This document shows, in pieces, positions 1 through 58,125 of a DNA stretch of 64,000 bases; within the stretch, counting starts at the first letter, position 1; each line of letters starts with the position of its first letter. The position numbers and the translations under genes are program-made. Where the stretch lies: the NCBI RefSeq assembly GCF_013315695.1, contig NZ_CP054353.1, one strand, 5' to 3'. The notes under the pieces are model-generated. The model made no database searches and was not told where the DNA came from. It saw nothing but the letters and a program-made list of their open reading frames with translations. This DNA is from Escherichia coli. GTDB taxonomy: Bacteria > Pseudomonadota > Gammaproteobacteria > Enterobacterales > Enterobacteriaceae.

Positions 1-267
1 GACTGGGAATCATCGGCAACCTGTATCTCTGCAGGATTATGCATAGGGATGGTGCCAACACATTTCGCCAAACCGTGGCTTAATGAGGATAAGTGGGTAG
101 CACTAGAACTGGAAAACCCCTTCCCGGATTCGGCATGTTGTCTGACATGGCAGCAAAATGATATGTCGCCTGCGTTAACCTGGTTGCTTGAGTATCTCGG
201 CGATAGTGAGACGCTGAATAAGGAGTGGCTGCGGGAGCCGGAAGAGACTCCCGCAACGGGTGATTAA
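1..267 (+). CDS. ydhB: LysR-family transcriptional regulator, C-terminal part (5' end lies outside window)
   Basis: Open frame from position 1 to stop at 265-267 (ORF track 49..267 is the in-frame tail); convergent with purR as in K-12 ydhB(punR)-purR; identity by synteny, not by recognised motif. Confidence 0.6.
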
Positions 268-1289
268 CGACGATAGTCGCGGAACGGGCCGTCAGCCACG
301 GAGCGGCGTTCAATCAACCGCGGATGCACTTCAATGGATTGCGGTTCTTCGCGTTTATTGACGATACGATCCAACAGCATGTTGAACGCCGTTTCGCCCA
401 GCGAATCTTTTGGCTGATGGATCGTGGTCAGCGCCGGCGTAAAATAGCGGGCGTTGCGCACGTTATCATAACCGATCAGCGAAACATCCTGCGGCACGCG
501 CAGACCCATTTCATCAGCAGCACAAAGTGCGCCCATTGCCATGATATCGCCACCACAGAAGACGGCAGTAGGGCGATGCGGTTGCGACAGTATTTGCTGC
601 ATGGCGCGATAACCGGATTCAGGTTCAAAATCACCCTGTACAATCCAGCTTTCCGGCACCTTGATCATCGCTTCTTCCATCGCCTTCATAAAACCGGCAA
701 GGCGGCCTGCGCCAGTGTTACGTTCCAGCGGGCCGGGGATAACGCCGATTTCGCGGTGACCGCGTTCTATCAGATAACGCCCGGCCATGTAACCGCCTTC
801 GAACGCGTTATCAATGACCGCATCGGTGAAGTCAGCTTTTGCTTCACCCCAGTCCATCACCACCATTGGGATATGGCGATACTCTTCCAGCATCGCCAGC
901 AATGGCTCTGGGTACTCAGAACACATCACCAGCAGACCATCGACGCGTTTTTGCGCCATCATCGACAGATAAGCCCGCTGTTTCTCAAGATTGTTCCACG
1001 CATTGCCCAGAATCAGGGTGTAACCTTTCTGGAAGCAATTTTTTTCAACCGCTTCAATGATCTCGGCAAAATAGGCCGCTTCGCTGCTGGTCGCCAGCAA
1101 ACCGATAGACTTAGTGTGGTTAACCTTCAGACTACGTGCCACCGCGCTAGGGGAGTAGTGTAATTCTTTGATCGCTGCCCACACGGCGTTGCGCGTTTCT
1201 TCAGCGACGAAACGTGTTTTGTTGATCACGTGTGACACAGTTGTAGTGGAAACGTTTGCTCGTTTCGCTACATCTTTTATTGTTGCCAT
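264..1289 (-). CDS. purR: Purine repressor PurR (LacI family)
   Basis: 341-aa ORF; N-terminal [27 protein letters not shown] and full-length match to remembered PurR; expected length. Confidence 0.95.
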
Positions 1290-1333
1290 TCCATTTCACT
1301 CCAGACCCTAACTTCAGCTCCTGCAAAATCGCA

Positions 1334-1349
1334 AGGTAAACGTTTGCCT
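1334..1349 (-). promoter_or_regulatory. Candidate PurR operator (pur box) in purR 5' leader
   Basis: aggtaaacgtttgcct contains the palindromic core AAACGTTT of the PurR box, 45-60 nt upstream of the purR start codon; purR is known to be autoregulated via leader operators. Confidence 0.45.
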
Positions 1350-1587
1350 TTACACACTTTACGCACAACAAAAGTGTTGCGGTACGCCGGAAAAACGACA
1401 CGGAGCGTCAGGAAGGGGTCAATGGCCAGTACGCAAATAGTGTAAGCGTGGAATTTTGGCCGATCTTGACGAAAAGGGGAAGTGGTAAAAACACTTATCA
1501 TTATAAATGACGGGAGATTTTTTCATCATAGTGTGTAAAAATGCGTAATATCACTTTTTGTGTGGTAATAAAAAAGGAGAAAACTTG

Positions 1588-1677
1588 ATGAGCACCGACC
1601 TTAAATTTTCACTGGTAACAACGATTATCGTCCTCGGTTTGATCGTGGCCGTGGGTTTGACTGCCGCGCTGCACTGA
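1588..1677 (+). CDS. ynhF: Small membrane protein YnhF (29 aa)
   Basis: ATG at 1588 preceded by aaaaaggaga SD; translation MSTDLKFSLVTTIIVLGLIVAVGLTAALH (single TM helix) matches remembered YnhF; below the 60-aa ORF-track cutoff so found by reading the sequence. Confidence 0.8.
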   Translation: MSTDLKFSLVTTIIVLGLIVAVGLTAALH

Positions 1678-1842
1678 TTTCCTCTCGAGGGAGCGCGTTC
1701 TCCCTCGCATCTCCTTCCTGTTTGTTAGCAAAATGGCAAAAGTGTTTTCTCTTTTTGTTATTTTCATTTTTTTGTGATTGCTGTCATGCTTTCGCCACTT
1801 TAATGAATATCGCGTAATGACGCGAAGAGGTGGAGATAAGGC

Positions 1843-3012
1843 ATGAAAATTAACTATCCGTTGCTGGCGCTGGCGATTGGCGCGTTTGGTATCGGGACAA
1901 CGGAGTTCTCGCCAATGGGCTTGTTGCCCGTCATTGCGCGCGGTGTGGATGTCTCGATTCCCGCTGCCGGAATGTTAATCAGTGCCTATGCAGTTGGCGT
2001 AATGGTGGGCGCGCCGCTGATGACGCTTCTACTTTCTCATCGTGCCCGCCGCAGTGCGTTGATTTTCCTGATGGCGATTTTCACGCTCGGCAACGTACTT
2101 TCCGCCATCGCGCCGGATTATATGACCCTGATGCTTTCTCGCATTTTGACCAGCCTGAATCACGGAGCATTTTTTGGTTTGGGTTCAGTCGTGGCCGCAA
2201 GCGTGGTGCCAAAACATAAACAGGCCAGCGCAGTTGCCACTATGTTTATGGGGTTAACCCTGGCAAATATCGGTGGCGTGCCGGCGGCGACCTGGTTGGG
2301 TGAAACTATCGGCTGGCGGATGTCATTTCTGGCAACGGCGGGGCTGGGAGTGATTTCAATGGTAAGTCTGTTCTTCTCATTACCTAAAGGTGGTGCAGGG
2401 GCACGACCTGAAGTGAAAAAAGAGCTGGCGGTATTAATGCGTCCGCAGGTGCTGTCTGCATTGCTGACGACGGTACTGGGAGCTGGTGCAATGTTTACCC
2501 TCTACACCTATATCTCTCCGGTACTGCAAAGTATTACCCACGCAACACCGGTGTTCGTCACAGCAATGCTGGTGCTGATTGGTGTCGGATTCTCTATCGG
2601 TAACTATCTCGGCGGCAAACTGGCAGATCGTTCAGTTAACGGCACGTTGAAAGGCTTTTTGTTGCTGCTGATGGTGATTATGCTGGCAATCCCGTTCCTG
2701 GCCCGCAATGAGTTCGGCGCAGCTATTAGCATGGTGGTGTGGGGCGCTGCAACCTTTGCGGTCGTACCGCCGTTACAGATGCGCGTGATGCGTGTCGCCA
2801 GTGAAGCGCCAGGTCTGTCTTCATCAGTCAATATTGGTGCCTTTAATCTTGGAAATGCGCTGGGAGCAGCTGCTGGTGGTGCGGTAATTTCCGCTGGGCT
2901 GGGATACAGCTTTGTGCCGGTGATGGGGGCGATTGTCGCGGGACTGGCATTATTGCTGGTGTTTATGTCAGCCAGAAAACAACCTGAAACAGTTTGCGTT
3001 GCCAACAGCTAA
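1843..3012 (+). CDS. ydhP: MFS transporter YdhP
   Basis: 389-aa ORF, 12-TM-like hydrophobic profile, position between purR and sodB as in K-12. Confidence 0.9.
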   Translation: MKINYPLLALAIGAFGIGTTEFSPMGLLPVIARGVDVSIPAAGMLISAYAVGVMVGAPLMTLLLSHRARRSALIFLMAIFTLGNVLSAIAPDYMTLMLSRILTSLNHGAFFGLGSVVAASVVPKHKQASAVATMFMGLTLANIGGVPAATWLGETIGWRMSFLATAGLGVISMVSLFFSLPKGGAGARPEVKKELAVLMRPQVLSALLTTVLGAGAMFTLYTYISPVLQSITHATPVFVTAMLVLIGVGFSIGNYLGGKLADRSVNGTLKGFLLLLMVIMLAIPFLARNEFGAAISMVVWGAATFAVVPPLQMRVMRVASEAPGLSSSVNIGAFNLGNALGAAAGGAVISAGLGYSFVPVMGAIVAGLALLLVFMSARKQPETVCVANS

Positions 3013-4694: not shown

Positions 4695-5028
4695 TGAGCG
4701 TCCCTCTGTTAAGGCAGGTCTATCATGCCTGCGTCTGATTTACAAAACTTGATGATTCTAATGCATAGAAGAAGAGAAAGTTAATAGCTTTTATTGTTAA
4801 AAAATACGTTTCGTCGGCGAGCGCAAAAAAATGCAGCAGTGAAAGCTAAAAATGGTTATAAACACGCCAGTTTGCCGTGCATAAGGGAAGAAACGAATAT
4901 TTGAAATGCAACAAATAGAACAAAGGGATAAAATAGCAAAAGCGTGATGAAAATGTTATTTTCCGATGCCGCACTGACCCGCTACAATGTCAGATTACTG
5001 CCGTAAAGAAGTTTGAGGAAGCAAGACA

Positions 5029-5426: not shown

Positions 5427-8400
5427 CTATTCCCAATCCAGCCCTTGTGGCGAACTTGAAAATCCCGCCTCACGCAGCAGCGTAAACATCGGCGTTGGTC
5501 GGACTGGTAGATCATTCACTTCTGTCAGCGTAAAGCGCAGCCGTGGTTCGCGACGCAGTGCGGTAGTCAGCGCATGGAAAACCTCTGGGGCGAGTAATTC
5601 CTCTTTTTCCTGCCAGACCAGCATTTTTTTGCCACCTTGCGCCAGATAAAGTAACAATTTGCCGCCAGAAACGACCACCAGCGCACCCGCCCGACGCGTT
5701 GGAACCAGCGTTGCCGGATGTGCAGGCCAGGGCAGAAGACTTCCCCACACATTAGCCGGATCGTTGGCGGAGAGCGCCACTGGTGTATAGTGGCGCGTTT
5801 GCGCGGTTTGTGTCGCCAGGTCACGCAATCGGTCAATAGTCAGACGTTCAGCGAATTGCGCGCCACCCAGACCTTCTACAAAACGACCCCGCATAATTCG
5901 CCCGGAGTCTTCCATACTTCGACAAAGCGTTTGCATCGATGGAAAACCGCCAGGGATATTTTCGGCTATCACCGCCTGACGACTGATGATGCCGTAGCGG
6001 TCGAGCATATTTTCCGCCAGCGCCAGCATCCTTTCGGTATCGTTTAGTGGCTCCACCTGCAATAACGACCAGCGTCCGGCCAGCTTTGGTGTGTTGTAAG
6101 ATACCCGCGGCGAGACGGGTTGCGCATAGACAGGACGCCCACGACGAGCCCGGTGACTGCGGCGAGTTGAGGTGCGTGCGTTGGAACTGCTGCGGGTGAG
6201 GGCGCGTAACGGTGCCCAAATATCGCTGGTGATGACGCCTTGCCAGACCAGCGCCCATAACGCCTCTTGCAGTGCCGAGGGATCAACCGATTCGCCGATT
6301 TTATCGCGTATCCGTTGGCTGATTTGTTGTGCAAACCAGGCTCCTCCGTCAGCCAGAACAGCGACTATCGCTTGCTGCAGCGCCGAACGATTCGCCTGAT
6401 CCGCTTCGGCGGGAGTGAACGATTCTGCGGCATATTCCTGTAGATGCAGTGCCACCAGGCCGTCATCTTCACCCAGCTTTTTTTGTCCCGACCAGATAAC
6501 CGCTCCGGTTGCCAGTAATTCATCGAGCATTTCTGGCGAATAGTCGCGTACGCGGGCAGGCAGGATCTGGCTTTCCCAGAGTGAGGCGGGTAAACCGACT
6601 CCTGCAAGCTGTTCGATCACCCGCATCACGCCATCCACGCCCTCATAAACGCCTGGCGATGTTGAGGCAAAGAGTGCCGGGCTACCATCGGTGGCGGGTA
6701 ATACGCCCTGACGTTCCAGCAGCAATCGCGCATAGGTCGTGGCCGCAACGGGACGTGTCGCTTCTCTGGCGGCTTGCAGCGAGCGCAAACGCAGACGACG
6801 AAATACTTCATCGCTCACCCAGATGTCTTGTTGCAGATTCATCACCAGACCCTGTTCGCGCAGTTGCTGAAGTTGCTCTTCGACAATGGCAATACCGAGA
6901 CTAAACTCATGAGCCAGTTGTTCAGCCGTGACCAGAGCATGAGCCCGGAGATAGCGCAGAAAGAGGTCGCGAAGCGGGTAACTGACTCGGTGCAAATAAA
7001 TCTCTGGCAGTGACTCTGGTAGTCGTACGCCGAGGGCATCGCGCAGCCTGGCGGCATCATCCATACAGGCAAGACGCTCCTGCCCGCTAATCATCGTCGG
7101 GAAGATTCGTTTTACTGCAAGAAGATTTTCCAGATACGACGCAATCTCTTCACTGCTGCCTGTATGCCGTTGCGCCAGGTCTTCAACGGTCATTGGCCCC
7201 AGTTCGCGCAGCAGGTCGAACAATCCTTCTTCACCTTTCGCTCTTCTGCCAGGAGCCAGTCGTTGCAACTCTTCTTCCACCTGGCGAATGACCTGCGGGT
7301 CGAGTAATTCCCCCGGTTCGACCTGTCCGAGTAGATTGCGCAGTAACTCGCTGTCCAGCGACAGTACGGATGCCCGGCGCTCTGCCAGCGGGGCGTCGCT
7401 CTGGTACATAAATTCCGCGACATAGCCGAACAATAAACTGGCGGCGAAAGGCGAGGGCGTAGTGGTCGTTACATCGGATATTTGAATTTCGCCACCGTTC
7501 AGGCGACGCATCAAACGTTCCAGCGCGGGAAGATCATAAACATCTTGCAGACATTCGCGTAGGGTTTCGAGAATGACCGGAAAATCCGGATATCCCTGAG
7601 CGATTTCCAGCAACTGACTGGCGCGCAGTCGTTGTTGCCAGAGCGGGGTGCGATGGCCCGGCGTGCGGCCCGGCATTAATAATGCCCGCGCGGCGCATTC
7701 GCGAAAACGGGCGGCGAAAAGTGCCGAGCTGCCTACCGCCTCGCGGACAATTTGCAGCAACTTTTCTGGTTCAAACAAAAAAATCGCGGCATCAGGCAAT
7801 TTACCATCGGTGTCAGGAATGCGCGCAACAATGCCGTCATCACTGGCAACCACAGACGCGTCAGCGCCCCATAGTGCATGTATTCGCCCGGCAATCGCCA
7901 GCGCCCAGGGTTCATGCACCCGTCTTCCATAGGGAGAGTGCAAAATAATACGCCAGTCACCAATTTCATCACGGCACCGTTCGAGGACAAGATGACGACT
8001 ACCTGGAACGATACCCGTCGCGTTGCGCTGCTCGTCAATCAACCCCTGAATATTGGCGATCGTATTTTCTTCTGCCAACCACGGGGGAATAGTCCCGGAA
8101 AAGAACGCGCCATCCGCCAGTAAATGGAGAAAATCGCCGATCATCTCGCCTAATTCTGCCGGACGTCCGTTACCTTCACCACGCCAGAAGGGAAGGCGGG
8201 CAGAACGACCTGGAGCAGGAGTCACAATCACCTGATCGCGGGTGATTTGCTGGATCCGCCATGAGGTTGCGCCAAGAGTGATAATATCGTTCACCCGTGA
8301 CTCATATACCATCTCCTCATCCAGTTCACCCACCCGCCGCGAACCGGCCTGTTCTTCACCTTCGGGTAATAACACGCTATACATGCCACGATCCGGAATG

Positions 8401-10043
8401 GTGCCGCCGCTGGTAACCGCCAACAATTGAGCGCCAGGTCGGGCGGTCAATATCCCGGTCTCCCTGTTCCAGACCAGTTTGGGGCGAAAAGCAGAAAAAT
8501 CGCCAGAGGGATAGCGCCCGGAAAGCATATCCAGCGTGGCGTCAAAAACACGTCCTGGCAGATCTTTCCACGGTGCGGCACGGCGTACGCGGGAGTACCA
8601 TTCGTCTACCTGTAATGCATCCATCGCCGCGGCGGCAACGGTTTGCTGCGCAAGGACGTCGAGTGGATTATGCGGTGGTGTCAGGTTTTCCAGCCTGCCT
8701 GCGAACATACACTCTACAATGACTGCGGAATCGACTAAGTCACGCCGGGTTCGGGGGAAAAAAAGCCCTTTAGATACACCGCCAACCTGATGTCCGGCAC
8801 GTCCAATGCGTTGTAACCCACTGGCAACAGAAAGCGGCGTTGCCACCTGAATCACCAGATCCACCGCGCCCATATCAATCCCTAGTTCGAGACTGGAGGT
8901 TGCGACCACGCAGCGTAATTCACCCGATTTCAGCGCCTGTTCGGTGATTGCTCGTTGTTCTTTAGAGACGGAGCCGTGGTGTGAGCGGGCAATAAAAATG
9001 TCGCTACTTTGTACACGGTTAGAGGTTGCGCCGGAGGTCGACTCGAAATGGGCCGCATCAACGGCGATAGACGGGGAACGCTGTAAGCGAGCGGCGTAAA
9101 GCTCATTTAATCGTGCCGTCAGTTTTTCCGCCAGCCCGCGCGAATTAGTAAAGATAATGGTCGAGCGATGGCGCAACACTTCATCAAGGATACCCGTTTC
9201 AATATATGGCCAGATGGAGCCTTCCCGGCCGGCATGGCTGTCTTCGCCGGTGCCGCTGGCGACTGATGAGACATCATCCATATTGGCGACCGGTACGACA
9301 ATCCGTATCTGCGGATGGCGCATTGCGGGCGGGTTGACTACCGTAACCGGGCGATCGCCACCAAGAAATGCTGCCACATCGCTCGCTGAGCGCACAGTGG
9401 CAGAAAGGCCAATTCGCTGTGCTGAGGTGTGGAGCAGCGCATCGAGCCGCTCCAGACTTAACGCCAGATGCGCACCACGTTTACTGCCTGCTACCGCGTG
9501 GACTTCATCAATAATTACCGTTTCGACGCCGCGTAGCGTTTCGCGCGCGCGGGAGGTCAGCATCAGATAGAGTGATTCGGGTGTGGTGATCAGAATATCC
9601 GGCGGATTACGGGTGAGTTTGCTGCGTTCCTGTGCAGGCGTATCGCCAGTACGGATCCCCACGCGAAGATTGACTTCCGTTTCGCCGCGCCGCCGCCGTT
9701 CATCGGCAATACCCTGTAACGGGATCTGCAAGTTGCGCTGAACGTCGGTGCCCAGAGCTTTGATCGGTGAAATATAGAGAATGCGTGAGGTTTTACGCTT
9801 ATGCGCCTCGCGGGTATCTTCGCCGCCTTCGCGGAAGAGCTGATCGAGGGCGTAGAGAAATGCTGCCAGCGTTTTCCCGGAGCCAGTCGGTGCAATCACC
9901 AGCGCATGTTCGCCTCGCGCCGCCACATGCCAGGTTTGCGACTGGACAGCGGTCGGCTGTTTAAAGGCGCGAAGAAACCAGTCGCGGGTCGCCGGTGAAA
10001 ACACGTCCGGCAGGGGCGAGGAAGGGTTTAGATTATCTGCCAT
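5427..10043 (-). CDS. lhr: Large ATP-dependent helicase Lhr
   Basis: 1538-aa ORF; Walker A APTGSGKT, DEVH box (IIDEVHAV), characteristic length and position downstream of rnt. Confidence 0.95.
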   Translation of the reverse strand: MADNLNPSSPLPDVFSPATRDWFLRAFKQPTAVQSQTWHVAARGEHALVIAPTGSGKTLAAFLYALDQLFREGGEDTREAHKRKTSRILYISPIKALGTDVQRNLQIPLQGIADERRRRGETEVNLRVGIRTGDTPAQERSKLTRNPPDILITTPESLYLMLTSRARETLRGVETVIIDEVHAVAGSKRGAHLALSLERLDALLHTSAQRIGLSATVRSASDVAAFLGGDRPVTVVNPPAMRHPQIRIVVPVANMDDVSSVASGTGEDSHAGREGSIWPYIETGILDEVLRHRSTIIFTNSRGLAEKLTARLNELYAARLQRSPSIAVDAAHFESTSGATSNRVQSSDIFIARSHHGSVSKEQRAITEQALKSGELRCVVATSSLELGIDMGAVDLVIQVATPLSVASGLQRIGRAGHQVGGVSKGLFFPRTRRDLVDSAVIVECMFAGRLENLTPPHNPLDVLAQQTVAAAAMDALQVDEWYSRVRRAAPWKDLPGRVFDATLDMLSGRYPSGDFSAFRPKLVWNRETGILTARPGAQLLAVTSGGTIPDRGMYSVLLPEGEEQAGSRRVGELDEEMVYESRVNDIITLGATSWRIQQITRDQVIVTPAPGRSARLPFWRGEGNGRPAELGEMIGDFLHLLADGAFFSGTIPPWLAEENTIANIQGLIDEQRNATGIVPGSRHLVLERCRDEIGDWRIILHSPYGRRVHEPWALAIAGRIHALWGADASVVASDDGIVARIPDTDGKLPDAAIFLFEPEKLLQIVREAVGSSALFAARFRECAARALLMPGRTPGHRTPLWQQRLRASQLLEIAQGYPDFPVILETLRECLQDVYDLPALERLMRRLNGGEIQISDVTTTTPSPFAASLLFGYVAEFMYQSDAPLAERRASVLSLDSELLRNLLGQVEPGELLDPQVIRQVEEELQRLAPGRRAKGEEGLFDLLRELGPMTVEDLAQRHTGSSEEIASYLENLLAVKRIFPTMISGQERLACMDDAARLRDALGVRLPESLPEIYLHRVSYPLRDLFLRYLRAHALVTAEQLAHEFSLGIAIVEEQLQQLREQGLVMNLQQDIWVSDEVFRRLRLRSLQAAREATRPVAATTYARLLLERQGVLPATDGSPALFASTSPGVYEGVDGVMRVIEQLAGVGLPASLWESQILPARVRDYSPEMLDELLATGAVIWSGQKKLGEDDGLVALHLQEYAAESFTPAEADQANRSALQQAIVAVLADGGAWFAQQISQRIRDKIGESVDPSALQEALWALVWQGVITSDIWAPLRALTRSSSNARTSTRRSHRARRGRPVYAQPVSPRVSYNTPKLAGRWSLLQVEPLNDTERMLALAENMLDRYGIISRQAVIAENIPGGFPSMQTLCRSMEDSGRIMRGRFVEGLGGAQFAERLTIDRLRDLATQTAQTRHYTPVALSANDPANVWGSLLPWPAHPATLVPTRRAGALVVVSGGKLLLYLAQGGKKMLVWQEKEELLAPEVFHALTTALRREPRLRFTLTEVNDLPVRPTPMFTLLREAGFSSSPQGLDWE

Positions 10044-13209: not shown

Positions 13210-13449
13210 GTGGCGGAGCAATTAGAGTTCTTTCCCGTCCAGAGCCCGTGCCGGGGAATTTGCCAGTCTGACGAACGCGGATTTTGTCGCGGCTGCTTTC
13301 GCAGTCGGGATGAGCGTTTTAACTGGAATAAAATGAGCGATGGCGAAAAACAAGAGGTACTGCGCCTTTGTCGGCAGCGATTAATGCGCAAATTACGTGC
13401 AAATAAGCCGGCGTCATCAGATGAACCGGAGCAACCATCACTCTTTTGA
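13210..13449 (+). CDS. ydhL: DUF1289 Cys-rich small protein YdhL
   Basis: GTG start at 13210, in frame with ORF 13039..13449; 79-aa product VAEQLEFFPVQSPCRGICQSDERGFCRGCFRSRDE... with CxxxC...CxxC pattern. Confidence 0.8.
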   Translation: MAEQLEFFPVQSPCRGICQSDERGFCRGCFRSRDERFNWNKMSDGEKQEVLRLCRQRLMRKLRANKPASSDEPEQPSLF

Positions 13450-13497
13450 GCCTAATCTTGCGTATACTCCTCTCATATCTGATAAGAGGAAGCGATT

Positions 13498-14394
13498 ATG
13501 GTTCAGCGTATTACTATTGCGCCGCAAGGCCCGGAGTTTTCCCGTTTTGTGATGGGCTACTGGCGATTGATGGACTGGAATATGTCCGCCCGCCAGCTGG
13601 TCAGTTTTATTGAAGAGCATCTGGATCTCGGCGTGACCACCGTGGACCATGCTGATATTTATGGTGGCTATCAGTGCGAAGCGGCGTTTGGCGAGGCGCT
13701 GAAACTGGCACCTCACCTGCGTGAACGGATGGAAATCGTCAGTAAATGCGGTATCGCGACGACCGCGCGTGAAGAAAACGTCATTGGTCATTACATCACT
13801 GACCGCGATCACATCATTAAGAGCGCCGAACAGTCGCTAATTAATCTCGCGACCGATCATCTGGATCTGCTGTTAATCCACCGACCAGACCCGTTAATGG
13901 ATGCCGATGAAGTGGCGGACGCGTTTAAACATCTGCATCAGAGCGGCAAAGTGCGCCATTTTGGCGTATCCAACTTCACGCCCGCGCAATTTGCCCTGTT
14001 GCAATCACGCCTGCCGTTTACCCTTGCCACTAATCAGGTGGAAATATCCCCGGTGCATCAGCCGTTACTGCTGGATGGCACGCTCGACCAACTGCAACAA
14101 CTGCGTGTTCGTCCGATGGCGTGGTCCTGCCTTGGTGGTGGTCGTCTGTTTAATGATGATTATTTCCAGCCGCTGCGTGATGAACTGGCTGTGGTGGCGG
14201 AGGAGTTAAACGCGGGCTCGATTGAACAGGTGGTTTACGCCTGGGTATTACGTTTACCGTCGCAGCCGCTGCCAATTATCGGCTCAGGTAAAATTGAGCG
14301 CGTACGGGCAGCTGTCGAAGCTGAAACACTGAAAATGACCCGTCAACAATGGTTCCGTATCCGTAAAGCGGCATTGGGTTACGACGTACCGTAA
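13498..14394 (+). CDS. ydhF: Aldo-keto reductase family oxidoreductase YdhF
   Basis: 298-aa ORF; AKR-type sequence; position between ydhL and sodC. Confidence 0.9.
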   Translation: MVQRITIAPQGPEFSRFVMGYWRLMDWNMSARQLVSFIEEHLDLGVTTVDHADIYGGYQCEAAFGEALKLAPHLRERMEIVSKCGIATTAREENVIGHYITDRDHIIKSAEQSLINLATDHLDLLLIHRPDPLMDADEVADAFKHLHQSGKVRHFGVSNFTPAQFALLQSRLPFTLATNQVEISPVHQPLLLDGTLDQLQQLRVRPMAWSCLGGGRLFNDDYFQPLRDELAVVAEELNAGSIEQVVYAWVLRLPSQPLPIIGSGKIERVRAAVEAETLKMTRQQWFRIRKAALGYDVP

Positions 14395-14474
14395 GCACTT
14401 TTAGGAATAGCCGCCGTTCAAAAATGTGTCACTGGTTTACACTTATTCAGGAATGCACAATGAACGGAGGTCCT

Positions 14475-14996
14475 ATGAAACGTTTTAGTCTGGCCATTCT
14501 GGCGCTGGTTGTTGCGACCGGCGCACAAGCTGCCAGTGAAAAAGTCGAGATGAACCTCGTCACGTCGCAAGGGGTTGGGCAGTCAATTGGTAGCGTCACC
14601 ATTACTGAAACCGATAAAGGTCTGGAGTTTTCGCCCGACCTGAAAGCATTACCCCCCGGTGAACATGGCTTCCATATTCATGCCAAAGGAAGCTGCCAGC
14701 CAGCCACCAAAGATGGCAAAGCCAGCGCCGCGGAATCCGCAGGCGGGCATCTTGATCCACAAAATACCGGTAAACATGAAGGGCCAGAAGGTGCCGGGCA
14801 TTTAGGCGATCTGCCTGCACTGGTCGTCAATAATGACGGCAAAGCTACCGATGCCGTCATCGCGCCTCGTCTGAAATCACTGGATGAAGTCAAAGACAAA
14901 GCACTGATGGTCCACGTTGGCGGCGATAATATGTCCGATCAACCTAAACCGCTGGGCGGTGGCGGTGAACGCTATGCCTGTGGTGTAATTAAGTAA
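14475..14996 (+). CDS. sodC: Periplasmic Cu,Zn superoxide dismutase SodC
   Basis: ATG at 14475 after ggagg SD; signal peptide MKRFSLAILALVVATGAQA, Cu/Zn-SOD His-rich motifs (GFHIHAKGSC...), 173 aa. Confidence 0.93.
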   Translation: MKRFSLAILALVVATGAQAASEKVEMNLVTSQGVGQSIGSVTITETDKGLEFSPDLKALPPGEHGFHIHAKGSCQPATKDGKASAAESAGGHLDPQNTGKHEGPEGAGHLGDLPALVVNNDGKATDAVIAPRLKSLDEVKDKALMVHVGGDNMSDQPKPLGGGGERYACGVIK

Positions 14997-17009
14997 TTAA
15001 GAGGCCAGCGTACCTTGCGGCGGTGCTTGCTCAAGTTGCGAAAGCGAGCAGTACAGCCGCCAGACAATTGCCGCCAGCTCACGGGCGGCAGGTTGATGAT
15101 GACGGGCAAGGCTGTCGCAAATTCGCTGTAATTCTTCAAGTGTGGCCGCCAGTGATTTTTGCTGAACGCCACGCTCACTCATCACTCCGCGCAACAGTGA
15201 AATACAGTTATCCCGTACTCGCGATAACGGATCGGAACGCGATTCCCAGTCGCGCAATTGCCAGACAACATGAGAACAGTTCAGCAGCACTACACCCCAG
15301 CGTAATAACCAACGGCGAGCCATCGCATCCTGGCTGTTACTCAACTGACTGACGTGATGATAAGTGAGCGATTCAAATTCGCTTTCACTCAGTGATGGAT
15401 GGCGGCTTAGTTGATCGACAAAATCCCGGCGCAGCGCGCGAATATGACGGCGACTTTTACGAGCATCCGATCCTGGACGCAGAATGGCGAACGCTAACCA
15501 CGCCAGCGCAACGCCAACGATTTTTGCCAGATTATCGTTAAGAAAATCAGCAAAATCATACACCGGGGGATTAGTGACAGCGATAAACGAACCCATAAAA
15601 ACAATCAGTTGCCCCCACAGTGCGGCAAATTTGGGCATCTGCAATTTAAGAAGCTGCATCGTCGCCAGCAGTGGAAAGAGAAACAGTAAAAATTGCCACA
15701 GATCGCTAATCTGGACCATCAGGCCAAATTTGACCACAAAGCTGAATAGCGAAAGTAACACCAGCGTACGCATCAGCAGTGACAACGACTTAAACGGTGC
15801 TGCGACGGCGGAGTAGAGTACGCAGCTAATTGCTGCCAGCGTTAATGCATTGGCACCGGCATCCCATTGCGAAGCAATACTCCATGCGCCAATCATCATC
15901 AACGTACAAAATGTACGCAGCCCGCTCCACATAGCTTCGGCGTTATCGGTATGACGAGCCAGGCCGGATGTCCGTGGGAGTCTGGTATGATCATCTACAC
16001 CGCTTTGCAGATGATGTAATTCCTGACTACTTTGCAGATAAAGGCGGCAAAAATAACGTAGTCGCTGCCAGAAGGCGATGTGCCGGTAGTCGGCGACGTT
16101 GGTCGGGCGTAGTGGGGCGATAATACGTGCGACGGTGTAAACATCTGTTTGCGAACTGGCGAGCGCCGTCAGCAGCTGTTCGAGAATTTCTCGTGTGGCA
16201 CCTGGCGGTGAGGGCCAGTTGAGCAACATACGTCGCAGGCTGGAGATGACACTGGTCATACGTAATTGCTGGTGGAGCAGCGCATTAAGGCGTGCGTTTT
16301 GCTGGCGAAAACGATAGTGGCTCCAGAAAGCCTGGATACGGAGCAAATTCATGGTCAGTATCTGCCCAATCACCCCCTCATGTGCTGCACGAATGGCATC
16401 GGTTGTTTCAGGCTGCCAGAGTAAACTGGCATGTTCCAGCAATCGGGCGTGCATGTTTTTCAATGCGGTTAAAAGGGCTGTAGCATCGGAACTGCTCGGC
16501 AGGATCATCATCATCATGCCGCCGCACAAAATACCGACAATCACCTCGCAAACGCGCGCCTGAGCGATATCCCACAGCTGGCTGGCCTCAGTAATATTAA
16601 CCATCGGAAAGGCGATGATGGCAGCCGTGTAGCCCGCCAGTTGAAATGCATACGCGACATTATTCGTGAAGTGCGCACAGGCCCAGGTACAAAAGCCAAG
16701 CCACGCCGCCATGCTCAAAAGAAAAAACCACGGCTCATTAAGTGTATGTCCGGCAAGAAGCAGTGCCGCAATGGCTCCGAGCAAACTGCCAGCGATGCGT
16801 CCGAGGCTTTTGCTGATGACACCGCCAACGGTGGGAAAGCTAACCACCGCAGCCGAGGTCATCGCCCAATAGGGTTCATCCAGATTCAAATAATAGGCAA
16901 CCGTCAGCGCCAGACACATGGCAATAGTATTGCGTAACGCATAACGCCATTGCGCCAGCGTGGCCCTGAACCAGGGCAAATTGCGCAAGGACCATGACGA
17001 TGTGTTCAT
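14997..17009 (-). CDS. ydhK: FUSC-family (aromatic acid exporter-like) inner membrane protein YdhK
   Basis: 670-aa ORF; stop abuts the sodC stop; overlaps ydhJ by 1 nt. Confidence 0.9.
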
Positions 17010-17866
17010 TATTGACCTACGGCAATGCTACAGGTGGTGCCCGACACCAGCGTAACATCGCCTGGGACTTTATCCAGCGCAAAGCGGACGGGAACGCGTT
17101 GGGCGAGTCGAACCCAGGGGACGTTAGGTTTCACATCCGGAATAAGGCTTGAGTCACTTTCAACGCTCTGATCATAAATCGCCCGACCGATACTGGAAAC
17201 GTGACCCTGTAACGTTTTGTTGTCACTATAGAGGGTAATTTGTGCTGGTGCACCTTCGCGGATATGGCGCAACTTGGTTTCTTCAAAATAACCAATGACG
17301 TAAAACGAGTGGCTGTCGACAAGGGCAAACAGCGGTTTCCCGGTGTCAGCGTAATCGCCGATGCGGGTAGTGAGGTTAGTCACCCATCCACTCACCGGGG
17401 CGCGAATTTCCGTTTGCGCCAGTTGCCATTGTGCCTGTTTCAGCGTCGCCTGTGCGGCATCAACACTGGCCTGCATCGCTTTAACATTGAGGTTAGCGGT
17501 ATCGAGTTCTTCGGCAGAAATAAAATTTTGTGAGAGATGACGACGACGATTCGCTTCGTTATTGGCTTTTGCGAGGTCAGATTGCGCTTTCGCCAGCTGA
17601 GCCTGTGCGTTCAGCTCGGCGATCTGAAAGGGCGTTTTATCGATCGTGAGCAGAAGATCCCCCGCGTTAACCAGTTGGTTGTCTTTTATATTCAACTCAA
17701 CAATACGTCCCGACACCTGAGGGGTGATAGAAACCTGTTCTGCGCGTATTTTCCCGTCGCGTGTCCACGGAGATTGCATGTAATAATTCCACAGCCACCA
17801 TCCGGCAAGAACCGCAACTACCGCTACAATGATTGTTGAGAAATACTTAATTGTTTTAATTGACAT
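17009..17866 (-). CDS. ydhJ: HlyD-family membrane fusion protein YdhJ
   Basis: Start chosen at MSIKTIKYF (ATG 17864-17866), 2 nt after the ydhI stop; ORF track extends 14 codons further upstream. Confidence 0.85.
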
Positions 17867-42962: not shown

Positions 42963-45838
<2,876 letters not shown>

Positions 45839-45853
45839 GGTAATGACTCCAAC

Positions 45854-46357
45854 TTATTGATAGTGTTTTATGTTCAGATAATGCCCGATGACTTTGTCAT
45901 GCAGCTCCACCGATTTTGAGAACGACAGCGACTTCCGTCCCAGCCGTGCCAGGTGCTGCCTCAGATTCAGGTTATGCCGCTCAATTCGCTGCGTATATCG
46001 CTTGCTGATTACGTGCAGCTTTCCCTTCAGGCGGGATTCATACAGCGGCCAGCCATCCGTCATCCATATCACCACGTCAAAGGGTGACAGCAGGCTCATA
46101 AGACGCCCCAGCGTCGCCATAGTGCGTTCACCGAATACGTGCGCAACAACCGTCTTCCGGAGCCTGTCATACGCGTAAAACAGCCAGCGCTGGCGCGATT
46201 TAGCCCCGACATAGCCCCACTGTTCGTCCATTTCCGCGCAGACGATGACGTCACTGCCCGGCTGTATGCGCGAGGTTACCGACTGCGGCCTGAGTTTTTT
46301 AAGTGACGTAAAATCGTGTTGAGGCCAACGCCCATAATGCGGGCTGTTGCCCGGCAT
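45854..46357 (-). CDS. insB: IS1 transposase InsB
   Basis: 167-aa [61 protein letters not shown]... Confidence 0.95.
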
Positions 46358-46551
46358 CCAACGCCATTCATGGCCATATCAATGATTTTCTGGTGCGTAC
46401 CGGGTTGAGAAGCGGTGTAAGTGAACTGCAGTTGCCATGTTTTACGGCAGTGAGAGCAGAGATAGCGCTGATGTCCGGCGGTGCTTTTGCCGTTACGCAC
46501 CACCCCGTCAGTAGCTGAACAGGAGGGACAGCTGATAGAAACAGAAGCCAC
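46276..46551 (-). CDS. insA: IS1 InsA
   Basis: 91-aa [46 protein letters not shown]... Confidence 0.95.
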
Positions 46552-52004: not shown

Positions 52005-53430
52005 TAATGCCGATCAGTTAAGGATCAGTTGACCGATCCAGTGGCTGTGTAAGAATCCGGAAACGCTCACTTGTTTCCGGATTTTTTTATGCACATTGGA
52101 CAGGCTCTTGATCTGGTATCCCGTTACGATTCTCTGCGTAACCCACTGACTTCTCTGGGGGATTACCTCGACCCCGAACTCATCTCTCGTTGCCTTGCCG
52201 AATCAGGTACTGTAACGCTACGCAAGCGCCGTCTTCCCCTCGAAATGATGGTCTGGTGTATTGTTGGCATGGCGCTTGAGCGTAAAGAACCTCTTCACCA
52301 GATTGTGAATCGCCTGGACATCATGCTGCCGGGCAATCGCCCCTTCGTTGCCCCCAGTGCCGTTATTCAGGCCCGCCAGCGCCTGGGAAGTGAGGCTGTC
52401 CGCCGCGTGTTCACGAAAACAGCGCAGCTCTGGCATAACGCCACGCCGCATCCGCACTGGTGCGGCCTGACCCTGCTGGCCATCGATGGTGTGTTCTGGC
52501 GCACACCGGATACACCAGAGAACGATGCAGCCTTCCCCCGCCAGACACATGCCGGGAACCCGGCGCTCTACCCGCAGGTCAAAATGGTCTGCCAGATGGA
52601 ACTGACCAGCCATCTGCTGACGGCTGCAGCCTTCGGCACGATGAAGAACAGCGAAAATGAGCTTGCTGAGCAACTTATAGAACAAACCGGCGATAACACT
52701 CTGACGTTAATGGATAAAGGTTATTACTCACTGGGACTGTTAAATGCCTGGAGCCTGGCGGGAGAACACCGCCACTGGATGATACCTCTCAGAAAGGGAG
52801 CGCAATATGAAGAGATCAGAAAACTGGGTAAAGGCGATCATCTGGTGAAGCTGAAAACCAGCCCGCAGGCACGAAAAAAGTGGCCGGGACTGGGAAATGA
52901 AGTGACAGCCCGCCTGCTGACCGTGACGCGCAAAGGAAAAGTCTGCCATCTGCTGACGTCGATGACGGACGCCATGCGCTTCCCCGGAGGAGAAATGGCG
53001 GATCTGTACAGTCATCGCTGGGAAATCGAACTGGGATACAGGGAGATAAAACAGACGATGCAACTGAGCAGGCTGACGCTGAGAAGTAAAAAACCGGAGC
53101 TTGTGGAGCAAGAGCTGTGGGGTGTCTTACTGGCTTATAATCTGGTGAGATATCAGATGATTAAAATGGCGGAACATCTGAAAGGTTACTGGCCGAATCA
53201 ACTGAGTTTCTCAGAATCATGCGGAATGGTGATGAGAATGCTGATGACATTGCAGGGCGCTTCACCGGGACGTATACCGGAGCTGATGCGCGATCTTGCA
53301 AGTATGGGACAACTTGTGAAATTACCGACAAGAAGGGAAAGGGCCTTCCCGAGAGTGGTAAAGGAGAGGCCCTGGAAATACCCCACAGCCCCGAAAAAGA
53401 GCCAGTCAGTTGCTTAACTGACTGGCATTA
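52005..53430 (+). mobile_element. IS4 copy 1 (1426 bp), no target-site duplication
   Basis: 18-bp imperfect terminal inverted repeats TAATGCCGATCAGTTAAGG / CCTTAACTGACTGGCATTA; flanks ccgcccttcgggg vs gtccccagggaga differ. Confidence 0.93.
52089..53417 (+). CDS. insG: IS4 transposase (DDE, IS4 family)
   Basis: [66 protein letters not shown]...; identical to the ORF in copy 2. Confidence 0.93.
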
Positions 53431-54230
53431 GTCCCCAGGGAGACGTTTTCTCCCGTAGCCAGTATTTTTCCATTACGCATCAGAGAGACACCCACGCCCG
53501 ATGCTTTTGTTGCATCTGGTGCTGTGTTAGCAAACACATGTCTGGCACTGTCAGTGGTAGCACCCGAAAGATAAAATGAGAGTTTTTGTTCACTTGAGCA
53601 ATATACGCCAAGGGGTATTTCTGCGCTTCCAGGAAAGTCCGGGAGATTCACGGTGACATTACGACTATCAACGGTGCAACCGCCTGTTGGCATAACAACA
53701 CTGTTATTTGAAATAATATTCCACGTAAAATTACGCGGATTTCCGCTTCCTAACGTGGCAATTTTATACATATGAATACGGGCAATAACTTCCCCTGCTT
53801 TTATGACAACTCCACCGGCCGCTCCGACTGGGGTAATATAGAGTTTTAACGGTAATGGCATCGGTGTCTTATCACCAATATCTAATACATTAGTATTTGT
53901 CGTCAACGGGAAGGGGTAGGTCACATTATTCCAGTACAGTGATCCTTTATATGACTGTAGGGAGCCTGCGAAAGCTGATCCTTGTACCAGGTTTATATGA
54001 TCAGTGTCGTACCAGCCGCCGTAATCATTCCAGCAACTTATATGCTGAGACAAGTCTACAACCAGATTCTGGCCCGGTTGTATTACAGGGTCGAGATTAA
54101 CATAAACAGAGGTTGTACCTGCTCCAATACTTGACCCGCCATCGACATTACAACTGAAGGCAAAAACTTTGCCTGCCATTAATAGAAGATAAATACCGAA
54201 CAGAAGCTTCATACTTATTGTTTTACCCAT
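53431..54230 (-). pseudogene. ydeQ: FimH-like fimbrial tip adhesin (ydeQ-like), C-terminus truncated by IS4
   Basis: 274-aa ORF aligns to FimH-type adhesins (GQNLVVDLS...VMPTGGCTV...VNLPDFPGS...) but stops 7 codons inside IS4 copy 1, missing roughly the last 35 residues. Confidence 0.7.
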
Positions 54231-54289
54231 GATATATCCTAAGGTTAAAAAATTGATTTAAAAAGGAGGCTAAGAAAATCGAATCGACG

Positions 54290-54793
54290 TTATTGCCAGG
54301 TGTAGATCACATTGATTAGCGCCTCGATCGTTCCCTGGCTTGCGTTTCCATTCACCGTGATAGCTCTTGCCTTAAGTGGAAACTGTGCATTACGAGTGAT
54401 CTCATCAACAATAACCGTTTTGCTATCGCCATTTTTTAACGTCGCATCCTGGTCATCCCTTAGCTCTATCTGAATATTTTCGGCTGTACCTTCATTTTTG
54501 TAATACCCCGTATTGTCAGTTGAACCTGTCACGATTGCCGTCACTGCACTTGTTTCAACCGGACAATCGGTTAATGACAAAGTAATATTGTGCCAGCCAG
54601 ATGCAGAACCAGGTTGTTGCAGATTGCGTGTATAAAGATCCCCGAGATTAACGTTAGCTTCTTTGGTTTGAATAGTGCATGGTTTAGCGCCTACCCGACC
54701 ATTAACAGTGATAGTGACATCGGCGGCCTGGAGAGTTGCTGTGAATAATGTGCAAAACGTAGCTAACAGGAACCTCTTGTGAAGTCTTTTCAT
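54290..54793 (-). CDS. ydeR: Fimbrial minor subunit (ydeR-like), 167 aa
   Basis: Signal peptide plus type 1 pilin-like sequence ending ...YTWQ; length matches remembered YdeR. Confidence 0.7.
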   Translation of the reverse strand: MKRLHKRFLLATFCTLFTATLQAADVTITVNGRVGAKPCTIQTKEANVNLGDLYTRNLQQPGSASGWHNITLSLTDCPVETSAVTAIVTGSTDNTGYYKNEGTAENIQIELRDDQDATLKNGDSKTVIVDEITRNAQFPLKARAITVNGNASQGTIEALINVIYTWQ

Positions 54794-54805
54794 ATCTGAC
54801 TCTGA

Positions 54806-55336
54806 TTATTGAAATTCAAGGGTAAAGGTTGCCGAAGCGCTCACCAGTCCAGGATTGACGGACTTCTGAGTTGACTTCAAACGAGCGGAGTAAGGCAAAA
54901 TATTGTTCTGTTCTGGTACCAATGGGATCCACTGCATCTCGGCATGAAGGTCATTCAATTTCACCGGACGCATATTTCCGTCCAGTATTTCTATACCCAA
55001 ACCGGAGGCCGTATTGCTTCCTTCATCCAGTTTCAACAGAGTATTATTTTCTGCATCCTCAATACCGTTAAATGCAACCCGAACTCCCGTTGTCCCTTTG
55101 CTGCATTCACTTAATGTAATCTGAAAAGGGACGGCTGGACTTGTGCTACCGGTCGTTGGAAATTGTCTGGCACTGTTTTTTTGGAGATCTACGGTAAAAT
55201 TAAGCGAATCCGATGAGACTGTGCAGCCATAATCGAGAACGCGCCCGCTAATTTTAATAACGCTATCTGCGGATAAAGCAGAATAGGTGGTTAACCCCAG
55301 ACATAAACCGAGGAAAATAACGTTATTGTATTTCAT
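54806..55336 (-). CDS. ydeS: Fimbrial subunit (ydeS-like), 176 aa
   Basis: Signal peptide plus pilin fold ending ...TFTLEFQ; length matches remembered YdeS. Confidence 0.7.
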   Translation of the reverse strand: MKYNNVIFLGLCLGLTTYSALSADSVIKISGRVLDYGCTVSSDSLNFTVDLQKNSARQFPTTGSTSPAVPFQITLSECSKGTTGVRVAFNGIEDAENNTLLKLDEGSNTASGLGIEILDGNMRPVKLNDLHAEMQWIPLVPEQNNILPYSARLKSTQKSVNPGLVSASATFTLEFQ

Positions 55337-55349
55337 AATCTATTGTTCC

Positions 55350-56149
55350 TTAGCGACAGATTGCTGTCTGCTGGTTCAGCAAGGTTCCAGGAGAGACTGC
55401 AGGAAGCTTGTAATCGACAATACAGTTTGAGTTTTTATCATTGCCCCATGAAACCTGTAATTTCCCTGACTGCGGAAGTCCAGTCAGATAAACCTGACCA
55501 TTTTCCGCGACAATGCTGCCATTTTTATTCTCTCCGTGAGTGACAATTGCACCGAATGGAACGCTTTTATTACCGTACTTCAACGTCATTAATACTTTCC
55601 CGCCGATTTGTGCATTAAATGTTGCTCTGGCAATAGCACCGTGAGTTGGGATGACAGTGACTACGGTTTCATCCAGTTCAACATTATCTGCAAGGGAATT
55701 CGCGTTAAGAGCGACACGATTTTCTCTATATTCTGTCGCAAATGGTAATATGGCATAGCCACGCCAGTCGGTATGAATTCCGGTCTGGTTCTCTATTTTG
55801 ACATTATCAGCGCCAGGAGCCTTAACCAGAACCATTGTGTCGCCCAGCGGCTGTCCAAAGGTGATGCCATCAGCATGAGCAATAATCCCACCACTCATTC
55901 CGTAATAAATCTGGCTGCTGTCACCACTCCGACTGTAACCGACATTCGTATTACCGTAAGCTCCACGATAATTAAGAGAACTGTAACCATTGGTGCCAGA
56001 CGATGTATTACCCCCTTGGGTGTTACCGACCTGAACGCTATAATTCAGGTTATTATCCGGCAGCAGAGTGCCATAAACCCCTGATAGGTTGGTCATGCCG
56101 CCTTTCAAATCGTTTGACATACTGTAACTGGCGTTTGAATTACGAAATG
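55350..56149 (-). pseudogene. ydeT: Fimbrial usher C-terminal fragment (ydeT-like), interrupted upstream by IS2
   Basis: ORF 55350..56177 resembles FimD-family usher C-terminal domains; ORF start lies inside IS2. Confidence 0.7.
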
Positions 56150-56240
56150 TAGACTGGCCCCCTGAATCTCCAGACAACCAGTATCACTTATTTAAGTGAT
56201 AGTCTTAATACTAGTTTTTAGACTAGTCATTGGAGAGCAG

Positions 56241-56606
56241 ATGATTGATGTCTTAGGACCGGAGAAACGCAGACGGCGTACCACACAGGAAAAGATCGCA
56301 ATTGTTCAGCAGAGCTTTGAACCGGGGATGACGGTCTCCCTCGTTGCCCGGCAACATGGTGTAGCAGCCAGCCAGTTATTTCTCTGGCGTAAGCAATACC
56401 AGGAAGGAAGTCTTACTGCTGTCGCCGCCGGAGAACAGGTTGTTCCTGCCTCTGAACTTGCTGCCGCCATGAAGCAGATTAAAGAACTCCAGCGCCTGCT
56501 CGGCAAGAAAACGATGGAAAATGAACTCCTCAAAGAAGCCGTTGAATATGGACGGGCAAAAAAGTGGATAGCGCACGCGCCCTTATTGCCCGGGGATGGG
56601 GAGTAA
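56241..56606 (+). CDS. insC: IS2 InsC (OrfA)
   Basis: [56 protein letters not shown]... Confidence 0.93.
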
Positions 56607-57469
56607 GCTTAGTCAGCCGTTGTCTCCGGGTGTCGCGTGCGCAGTTGCACGTCATTCTCAGACGAACCGATGACTGGATGGATGGCCGCCGCAGTCGTCA
56701 CACTGATGATACGGATGTGCTTCTCCGTATACACCATGTTATCGGAGAGCTGCCCACGTATGGTTATCGTCGGGTATGGGCGCTGCTTCGCAGACAGGCA
56801 GAACTTGATGGTATGCCTGCGATCAATGCCAAACGTGTTTACCGGATCATGCGCCAGAATGCGCTGTTGCTTGAGCGAAAACCTGCTGTACCGCCATCGA
56901 AACGGGCACATACAGGCAGAGTGGCCGTGAAAGAAAGCAATCAGCGATGGTGCTCTGACGGGTTCGAGTTCTGCTGTGATAACGGAGAGAGACTGCGTGT
57001 CACGTTCGCGCTGGACTGCAGTGATCGTGAGGCACTGCACTGGGCGGTCACTACCGGCGGCTTCAACAGTGAAACAGTACAGGACGTCATGCTGGGAGCG
57101 GTGGAACGCCGCTTCGGCAACGATCTTCCGTCGTCTCCAGTGGAGTGGCTGACGGATAATGGTTCATGCTACCGGGCTAATGAAACACGCCAGTTCGCCC
57201 GGATGTTGGGACTTGAACCGAAGAACACGGCGGTGCGGAGTCCGGAGAGTAACGGAATAGCAGAGAGCTTCGTGAAAACGATAAAGCGTGACTACATCAG
57301 TATCATGCCCAAACCAGACGGGTTAACGGCAGCAAAGAACCTTGCAGAGGCGTTCGAGCATTATAACGAATGGCATCCGCATAGTGCGCTGGGTTATCGC
57401 TCGCCACGGGAATATCTGCGGCAGCGGGCTTGTAATGGGTTAAGTGATAACAGATGTCTGGAAATATAG
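56564..57469 (+). CDS. insD: IS2 transposase InsD (OrfB, expressed by -1 frameshift from insC)
   Basis: 301-aa ORF overlapping the insC 3' end in the -1 frame; DDE integrase-type sequence. Confidence 0.93.
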
Positions 57470-57480
57470 GGGCAAATCCA

Positions 57481-58125
57481 AAATGCCGACTGACTGTCTG
57501 TGCGCATCCAATGACTAAAGGGAACATTAAGCGTAAAAGCGAGTAAATGATCCCGATCGTTTTGCCATATATTATTGGAATAGCTGTAATTCAGCGAAGT
57601 CGTAATATCACTAAACGGCACATTTAATCCAAATGATATTTGCTGGTCGCTGCGTGACGTGTTCCAGTAACTTTGGCGACTGGCACTGAAAAATGTCGTA
57701 CCGTAATTTCCAAGCTGCTGAGAGATGCTTATTTGTTCCTGACCACGCTTACTGTAGAACAGATTAAAATAATCAATAAATTGTGTCTGCTCATTGCTGT
57801 CTCCGGTAGGAGGCTTGACGGTGTAACCACTCATTCGACTGTAGGCACTGTCGGATAAGTTATAAAAACCTTGCGTAGAATAGCGATATCCTGCGACCTG
57901 GATATTGGTTCCCGTCTGGTAGAAGGATTTGCTGTAGACGGATTTAATCGATTGCCCGCTGTGACGGGTGCCATCTGCAAGTGTCGTATTGGCCTGCGTG
58001 ATATCGAAAGAAAAGGCACCAAAAAGTCCTAAATCTTTACCAATACCAAGGTTGAAGGCCTGATAATCTTCTGCAATTTGCATTCCGCCATAAGGCGTCC
58101 AGTTTCCTTCCAGTCCATGCATCAA
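57481..58125 (-). pseudogene. ydeT: Fimbrial usher internal fragment (ydeT-like); N-terminal part of the usher absent
   Basis: ORF 57394..58125 is usher-like until it runs into IS2; together with 55350..56149 about 480 codons, roughly half of a full usher; upstream is AT-rich non-coding. Confidence 0.65.

Follow-up and report, generated by a model that had tools for sequence, protein, structure and literature searches.

Convergent junctions at which one stop codon meets another have already been described as a class. For E. coli, Lillo and Krakauer (2007, PMC2174442) arrived at 58 overlaps of the convergent type, ascribed the excess of overlaps of length 4 to CTAA, TTAA, CTAG and TTAG tetramers, and already made the point that terminators must then sit in the coding sequence of the partner. 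Dar and Sorek (2018) described Rho-dependent transcripts with precise ends located just after a stable stem-loop, followed by C>G sequence and carrying no U-tract, which arise from 3′-5′ trimming. Regions of Rho termination were mapped by Adams et al. (2021, eLife, PMC7815308) using DirectRNA-seq with and without the drug bicyclomycin (BCM). Finally, ExcludonFinder (Sanmartin et al., NAR 2025, PMC12288877) includes ydhK-sodC, purR-punR, tus-fumC and folM-ydgC in its set of 165 MG1655 excludons of the convergent type; a pair enters its Table 1 when the two transcripts overlap in 50% or more of 58 transcriptomes (PMC12288877). The overlap of exactly the two pairs considered here, sodC/ydhK and punR/purR, is therefore already published.

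The window analysed is a stretch of 64,000 nt of the E. coli chromosome, whose positions 13400-17100 match 5,425 of 5,426 complete E. coli genomes. Over positions 1-53430 it is identical to AF3 (NZ_OZ547117.1) except for 15 single-base differences, and K-12 MG1655 carries the same gene arrangement in the opposite orientation. The features discussed below are collected in Table 1. RefSeq/PGAP gene ends in AF3 coincide with those listed there for punR (+), purR (−), sodC (+) and ydhK (−). The SodC product terminates in ERYACGVIK, a C-terminus kept in 9 enterobacterial loci; YdhK has 997 homologues at E≤1e-50 and carries Pfam FUSC/FUSC_2 domains; and the translated C-termini of SodC, YdhK, PurR and PunR are all full-length conserved ends. 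Both open reading frames of each pair are thus real genes with correctly placed ends, on the evidence of conserved C-termini, homologues and RefSeq. An artefact of ORF calling or annotation was rejected, since the stop codons are unambiguous, the C-termini conserved and the RefSeq ends identical. Loci for comparison were gathered by protein searches with YdhK and PunR and by inspection of contigs. A contig scan with Lhr as query (lhr lies between the two junctions) returned relatives that were almost all Actinobacteria, with one further informative Escherichia locus, L004.

Table 1. Positions in the window of the genes, repeat, hairpins and transcript features at the two convergent junctions.
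Feature	Position	Strand	Basis and remarks
punR (ydhB) CDS, 3′ part	1..267	+	stop TAA 265-267
purR mRNA 3′ end, window equivalent	225..226	−	MG1655 1738907/1738908; coordinate mapping verified
GC-rich hairpin of 12 bp in purR 3′ UTR, starting 7 nt after the stop	228..257	−	dG −24.4 kcal/mol; z −4.98; 0/200 shuffles
purR CDS	264..1289	−	stop TAA (= TTA on +) 264-266; 4-nt overlap with punR (TTAA)
sodC CDS, periplasmic Cu,Zn superoxide dismutase	14475..14996	+	stop TAA 14994-14996; sequence and annotation
Weak hairpin inside sodC, 10-bp stem then AUUAUUG, ~136-165 nt past the ydhK stop	14832..14861	−	folding
Perfect 8-bp tandem repeat, (TAATTAAG)x2, forming the sodC/ydhK junction	14986..15001	.	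sequence reading
ydhK CDS, FUSC-family protein, last gene of ydhIJK	14997..17009	−	stop TAA (= TTA on +) 14997-14999
C-rich, G-poor stretch downstream of sodC, antisense to ydhK	15127..15386	+	C/G 1.3-1.6; C 0.28-0.33, G 0.19-0.23
Rho zone inside ydhK, ~600 nt before its stop	~15602	−	Adams et al. 1723528 (+), mapped by offset

At the sodC/ydhK junction direct reading confirms that the two stop codons abut, GGT GTA ATT AAG TAA running straight into TTA AGA GGC with 0 nt between the genes; in E. coli the pair is strictly adjacent, not overlapping. The punR/purR junction reads GGT GAT TAA on the + strand (punR stop) and CGT CGT TAA on the − strand (purR stop), and is a true convergent overlap through the shared TTAA tetramer at 264-267. 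The original prediction that these stops overlap by 4 nt holds for the coding sequences, which share the 4 nt of the tetramer, but the stop codons themselves have only 2 nt in common (265-266). Since there is no spacer, a 3′ UTR of either gene can only lie antisense to its partner. Such a zero- or negative-spacer layout is ordinary in E. coli and not a statistical oddity: among 8 native convergent junctions between window positions 1 and 53430, 2 are spaced by 0 nt or less, and in the next 14 kb of the reference strain lie fumC/tus and ydgC/folM, both at −4, whose 4-nt overlaps are also present in K-12.

The stops of sodC and ydhK abut because of the 8-bp tandem repeat. The first copy encodes the last SodC residues and the second contains both stop codons. 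Copy number varies within the species: the two-copy junction with abutting stops was found as an exact 31-mer in 4,151 of 5,426 E. coli genomes, a three-copy junction with an 8-nt spacer (TTAAGTAA) in 73 of 5,426, and a one-copy junction in a single genome of the 5,426 (strain S40), where the sodC stop is lost and the gene is annotated as a pseudogene. Phase variation of sodC through the repeat was considered and rejected, the one-copy form occurring in 1 of 5,426 genomes. Outside the species, the sodC/ydhK spacing is 0 nt in the divergent Escherichia (L004), in E. fergusonii and in Citrobacter, −8 nt in Klebsiella oxytoca and Kosakonia, −22 nt in Enterobacter cancerogenus and Leclercia, and −25 nt in Salmonella. 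Over the eight enterobacterial genera sampled it ranges from 0 to −25 nt and is never positive, and the stop codons at the junction vary between genera. The never-positive spacing together with the differing stop codons indicates that the tail-to-tail contact of sodC and ydhK is old, with drift confined to where the ydhK stop lies.

Termination signals were sought on both sides of sodC/ydhK. The junction (±35 nt) is unstructured (z +1.20), a fold as good being reached by 179 of 200 shuffles. At all six other convergent junctions of the window, grxD/lhr, slyA/slyB, pdxY/gstA, ydgJ/add, porin pseudogene/ydgA and ydhP/sodB, there is one strong hairpin (z −3.5 to −5.3, 0/200 shuffles); among the window's convergent junctions, sodC/ydhK alone lacks a terminator hairpin. 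A consensus terminator scan of the + strand gave no site from the sodC stop up to 16429. An alignment of 9 loci revealed no conserved RNA structure on either side of the junction (covariation terms +0.22 and +0.27, compensatory pairs 1 and 0), and an Rfam scan of the whole window gave no match at either junction. Past the sodC stop as past the purR stop, the RNA is untranslated, C-rich and G-poor, as expected upstream of a Rho termination zone. A GC-rich stem-loop running directly into a U-tract that holds the 3′ end was found neither at sodC nor at purR, and the candidate at 14832-14861 is weak and not conserved outside Escherichia.

The published transcript data come from a different strain, K-12 MG1655, grown in LB or M63 to exponential and early stationary phase. 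They contain a Rho zone at MG1655 1723937 (−), antisense to ydhK, with a Rho score of 5.10 and p = 2.8e-5 (Adams et al. 2021, supplementary file 2, PMC7815308). Mapped by its offset from the stop codon, this zone falls 197 nt past the sodC stop, at window position ~15193 and within the C>G stretch; as Rho scores are computed over windows of 800 nt, the ~200-nt position is approximate. Upstream and downstream reads at the zone were 74 and 14 without drug and 29 and 28 with drug (PMC7815308), so that the downstream/upstream ratio goes from 0.19 to 0.97 with bicyclomycin, with the qualification that read counts for sodC and ydhK are low, in the tens per 800 nt (74/14 at the sodC-strand zone). In MG1655, read-through on the sodC strand thus rises when Rho is inhibited, the behaviour of a Rho-dependent and not of a Rho-independent terminator. 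The neighbouring 4-nt overlaps behave alike, with a Rho zone reported 290 nt beyond the fumC stop, antisense to tus, and another 585 nt beyond that of ydgC, antisense to folM (PMC7815308).

A second zone, at 1723528 (+), is internal to ydhK on its sense strand, with a score of 3.17 and reads going from 54/20 to 382/449 with BCM (PMC7815308). Its location indicates that ydhIJK transcription is itself curtailed by Rho, and much of it may not reach sodC in LB. The original prediction had each transcript running into its partner gene as antisense. MG1655 data bear this out for two of the four transcripts, those of sodC and purR; for ydhK, termination well inside the gene, ahead of its partner, runs in part against it. 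Term-seq 3′ ends of Adams et al. (PMC7815308) include none given for sodC, ydhK or punR, and the TERMITe supplements make no mention of sodC, ydhK, purR or punR.

At punR/purR a 3′-end signal is present in spite of the missing spacer. The GC-rich hairpin of the purR 3′ UTR encodes, on the opposite strand, the 10-residue tail of PunR. It was claimed originally that the abutting or overlapping stops leave no room for terminators; there is indeed no spacer, but the hairpin sits in the last codons of punR. Adams et al. (2021, supplementary file 1, PMC7815308) report a purR 3′ end at 1738907/1738908 (+), of class 'primary, antisense ydhB'. Measured from its stop codon, the purR mRNA thus extends a further 38-39 nt, to a point 2-3 nt beyond the stem; a U-tract is absent, the stem being followed by CACUCCUUAUUC. 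The C/G ratio is ~1.9-2.0 over the first 104 nt past the purR stop, and the Rho zones of Adams et al. (PMC7815308) include none given at the purR 3′ end.

The purR hairpin is kept in a divergent Escherichia, Citrobacter amalonaticus, Enterobacter asburiae and Serratia plymuthica despite differing PunR tails. In the alignment (n = 5 sequences), 98% of cells are paired and 4 of 11 pairs show compensatory changes, a level reached by 0 of 500 shuffles. Across five genomes, punR and purR are spaced by −4, −4, +18, +6 and −4 nt. The 18-nt spacer of Enterobacter contains part of the hairpin, and in Yersinia pseudotuberculosis the called punR ORF, which has no stop at the usual place, crosses a ~75-nt region containing the hairpin and then extends 138 nt into purR. 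Most likely, the reading frame of punR came to include what had been a 3′ hairpin of purR.

Taken together, these data are best explained by two ordinary convergent junctions with zero or negative spacer, at which 3′-end formation has been moved into the partner gene; we give this reading a probability of roughly 0.78. At sodC, the ribosome would leave at the stop codon and expose an untranslated RNA antisense to ydhK, which Rho would then terminate before more than a few hundred nucleotides had been made, with a peak ~200 nt downstream in the C>G stretch. Rho would presumably act there because translation has ended. Transcription of ydhIJK would be largely stopped by Rho inside ydhK, and the remainder would run antisense into sodC without meeting a conserved terminator. 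At punR/purR, the TTAA overlap conceals a conserved hairpin made from the last ~12 codons of punR, and the purR transcript, once terminated by Rho, would be trimmed by exonucleases back to the protective stem-loop; the shape of the end suggests this trimming. Of this account, the anatomy of the sequence and its conservation are shown, as are, in published data, the purR 3′ end and the Rho zones. We infer that the overlaps have little regulatory effect. Interference between the partners is probably small, because expression is low and Rho limits read-in from both sides.

A different view is that the junctions are functional excludons, in which the zero spacer is under selection and sodC/ydhIJK and purR/punR mutually repress each other through polymerase collision, RNase III cleavage of the duplex, or both. 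In each pair the neighbouring genes are on opposite strands, and published data (Table 1 of the ExcludonFinder paper, the purR end and the sodC-strand Rho zone) show overlapping transcripts for both. The two pairs are catalogued, and excludon pairs, taken as a class, are expressed in a mutually exclusive manner in single cells and have higher synteny (PMC12288877); yet the catalogue entry of these pairs reflects RNA-seq coverage overlap only. The ydhK/sodC spacing of 0 to −25 nt, never positive in any of the eight genera sampled, is what selection on the junction would give, but a spacer that never reopens is also expected under deletion bias alone, and the 8-nt spacer of 73 E. coli genomes shows no sign of mattering. 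Different regulons have been reported, sigma-S for sodC and sigma-E for ydhK. With bicyclomycin, ydhK-sense reads go from 20 to 449 and sodC-strand reads from 74 to 29, a weak hint of reciprocity, as these counts are not normalised. Against this, the available data show weak expression of both genes, read-in is limited by Rho from both sides, that of purR amounts to just 38-39 nt at steady state, and at the junction the 9 loci revealed nothing conserved in RNA structure or in sequence apart from what coding requires. We therefore consider mutual repression unlikely. Its more specific form, a sodC/ydhK junction selected as a reciprocal switch where stationary-phase, sigma-S-driven sodC transcription silences ydhIJK, an efflux operon, and is silenced by it in turn, the depth of invasion being set by Rho, appears more doubtful still.

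In the collision model for bidirectional termination (Ju/Wang/Liu), a hairpin in the overlap pauses both polymerases, and head-on and trailing collisions release them, giving sharp ends that depend neither on Rho nor on a U-tract. The purR/punR hairpin is located exactly in the overlap zone, and the purR end is sharp, adjacent to the hairpin and free of a U-tract; the model could thus apply to this pair. However, Rho termination and subsequent trimming account equally well for ends that sit next to a hairpin and lack a U-tract, no punR 3′ end has been mapped, and the model requires dense traffic from both sides, termination being less efficient for lowly expressed pairs. The hairpin it calls for is present at purR/punR and absent from sodC/ydhK (z +1.2), where read-through is in addition sensitive to bicyclomycin. 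Because it lacks a hairpin and depends on Rho, sodC/ydhK does not fit the model, and as an account of the two junctions we judge collision very improbable.

The least probable explanation is that each transcript is stopped by an intrinsic terminator lying within the coding sequence of its partner, the candidates being 14832-14861 (−) in the case of ydhK and 340-353 and 393-405 (+) in that of punR: the consensus scan did turn up candidate sites, and rho-independent terminators have been predicted for 23 genes in E. coli convergent overlaps (Lillo and Krakauer, PMC2174442), but site numbers were no higher than in shuffled sequence (5 versus 4.5±2.1 and 4 versus 2.0±1.7), the scan stems are of 5 bp with poor U-tracts, no Term-seq end is given at any candidate in Adams et al. 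(PMC7815308), and sodC has no such candidate at all. The 81-nt segment around the hairpin at 14832-14861 folds no better than shuffles (z −1.18) and its stem is broken outside Escherichia, so it is at best a weak terminator or a 3′-end protector for ydhIJK transcripts.

Returning to the reading of ordinary junctions with displaced 3′ ends, the two pairs illustrate two ways of making an end without a spacer: at sodC, Rho would clean up behind the ribosome, and at purR/punR a protective hairpin appears to have been taken up into the reading frame of the neighbour. The 8-bp repeat also makes clear how easily mutation can break such a junction, since slippage by a single copy removes the sodC stop codon. 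What is added here to published knowledge is modest and consists of the polymorphism of the 8-bp repeat, the never-positive spacing, the absence of a hairpin at sodC/ydhK and the conserved purR hairpin within punR.

Compared with the known systems, punR/purR is a textbook TTAA case of the short convergent overlaps of the 4-nt class (Lillo and Krakauer 2007; Fukuda 2003; Johnson and Chisholm 2004), in which the opposite-strand stops occupy a palindromic tetramer. The sodC/ydhK junction differs from this class in having a spacing of 0, derived from an 8-bp tandem repeat whose copy number is variable within the species, and in being a real overlap of 8, 22 or 25 nt in other genera. Both ydhK-sodC and purR-punR are named members of the ExcludonFinder set; their listing is based on RNA-seq coverage overlap only, whereas reciprocal repression is known for the class and for relBE-ydfV (PMC12288877). 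Overlapping bidirectional terminators (Ju et al. 2019; the ynaJ-uspE model in Wang et al.) use one hairpin common to the converging units, like the six other junctions of the window and, functionally, purR/punR; the hairpins of those terminators are located in a spacer of 35-50 nt, in contrast to that of purR/punR, which is inside an ORF, and to sodC/ydhK, which has none. With the Rho-dependent, stem-loop-protected ends (Dar and Sorek 2018; Peters et al.), purR shares a hairpin-adjacent end, the missing U-tract and the C>G sequence, and sodC shares read-through that is sensitive to bicyclomycin. sodC departs from that class in having no known protective hairpin or precise end, and purR in that its protective hairpin is also translated, on the other strand, as the C-terminal tail of PunR.

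In published E. coli K-12 MG1655 data, bicyclomycin raised ydhK-sense reads around a Rho site internal to the gene, by a factor of 7 on its upstream side and of 22 on its downstream side, the counts not being normalised (PMC7815308). From this increase, Rho appears to keep the ydhIJK operon, of which ydhK is the last gene, largely silent in LB.

In the second convergent pair, punR/purR, the punR homologue of Yersinia pseudotuberculosis lacks its usual stop, hence its call as an ORF of 376 aa. This ORF passes two hairpins and enters purR by 138 nt, and could be either a genuine extension or a pseudogene. On the other side of purR, an Rfam scan of the whole window gave a single match, STnc550 (full length), which spans the purR-cydH intergenic region together with the 29-codon cydH (ynhF) ORF.

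Features and their coordinates
Feature	Position	Strand	Remark
STnc550	window 1290-1680	+	Rfam match, 394 bits
lhr	window 5427-10043	-	
Internal Rho site in ydhK	window ~15602	-	published MG1655 data
IS4 copy 1	window 52071-53430		
IS4 copy 2	window 61108-62547		
punR homologue	L095 (Y. pseudotuberculosis punR/purR locus) 1501-2631		ORF call
fumC/tus overlap	L002 (AF3 locus beyond the window match) 4967-4970; K-12 1685185-1685188	convergent	4 nt
ydgC/folM overlap	L002 8457-8460; K-12 1681695-1681698	convergent	4 nt

The distribution of Lhr relatives suggests that lhr is a patchy gene, possibly acquired horizontally. Outside Escherichia, the nearest relatives in 100,044 species genomes are nearly all from Actinobacteria (45-52% identity), the only enterics within the best 80 being Rosenbergiella (59%) and Pantoea (56%).

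Sequence comparison with the near-identical strain AF3 (NZ_OZ547117.1) showed that the match extends to 53430, where the first IS4 ends. Beyond this point, the window corresponds to an inverted AF3 segment located ~120-134 kb further along the chromosome (record 994033-1006855). This arrangement suggests an inversion or rearrangement relative to AF3 mediated by the element. As annotated in the matching AF3 region, window 53431-64000 is a degraded island flanked by the IS4 copies, where an autotransporter pseudogene and an inserted IS2 accompany the remains of a fimbrial operon (usher, chaperone, fimF/fimG). Separately, the AF3 annotation of the region equivalent to window 42963-46551 has uidA frameshifted and uidB cut short by an inserted IS1, and after them an OprD-family porin that is likewise truncated; the window differs there from AF3 by a few SNPs, and the uidA frameshift is a reading of the AF3 annotation only.

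Two further convergent overlaps, fumC/tus and ydgC/folM, lie in the adjacent region, outside the window. For both, a Rho-dependent termination zone within the partner gene has been published (Adams et al. 2021, PMC7815308).
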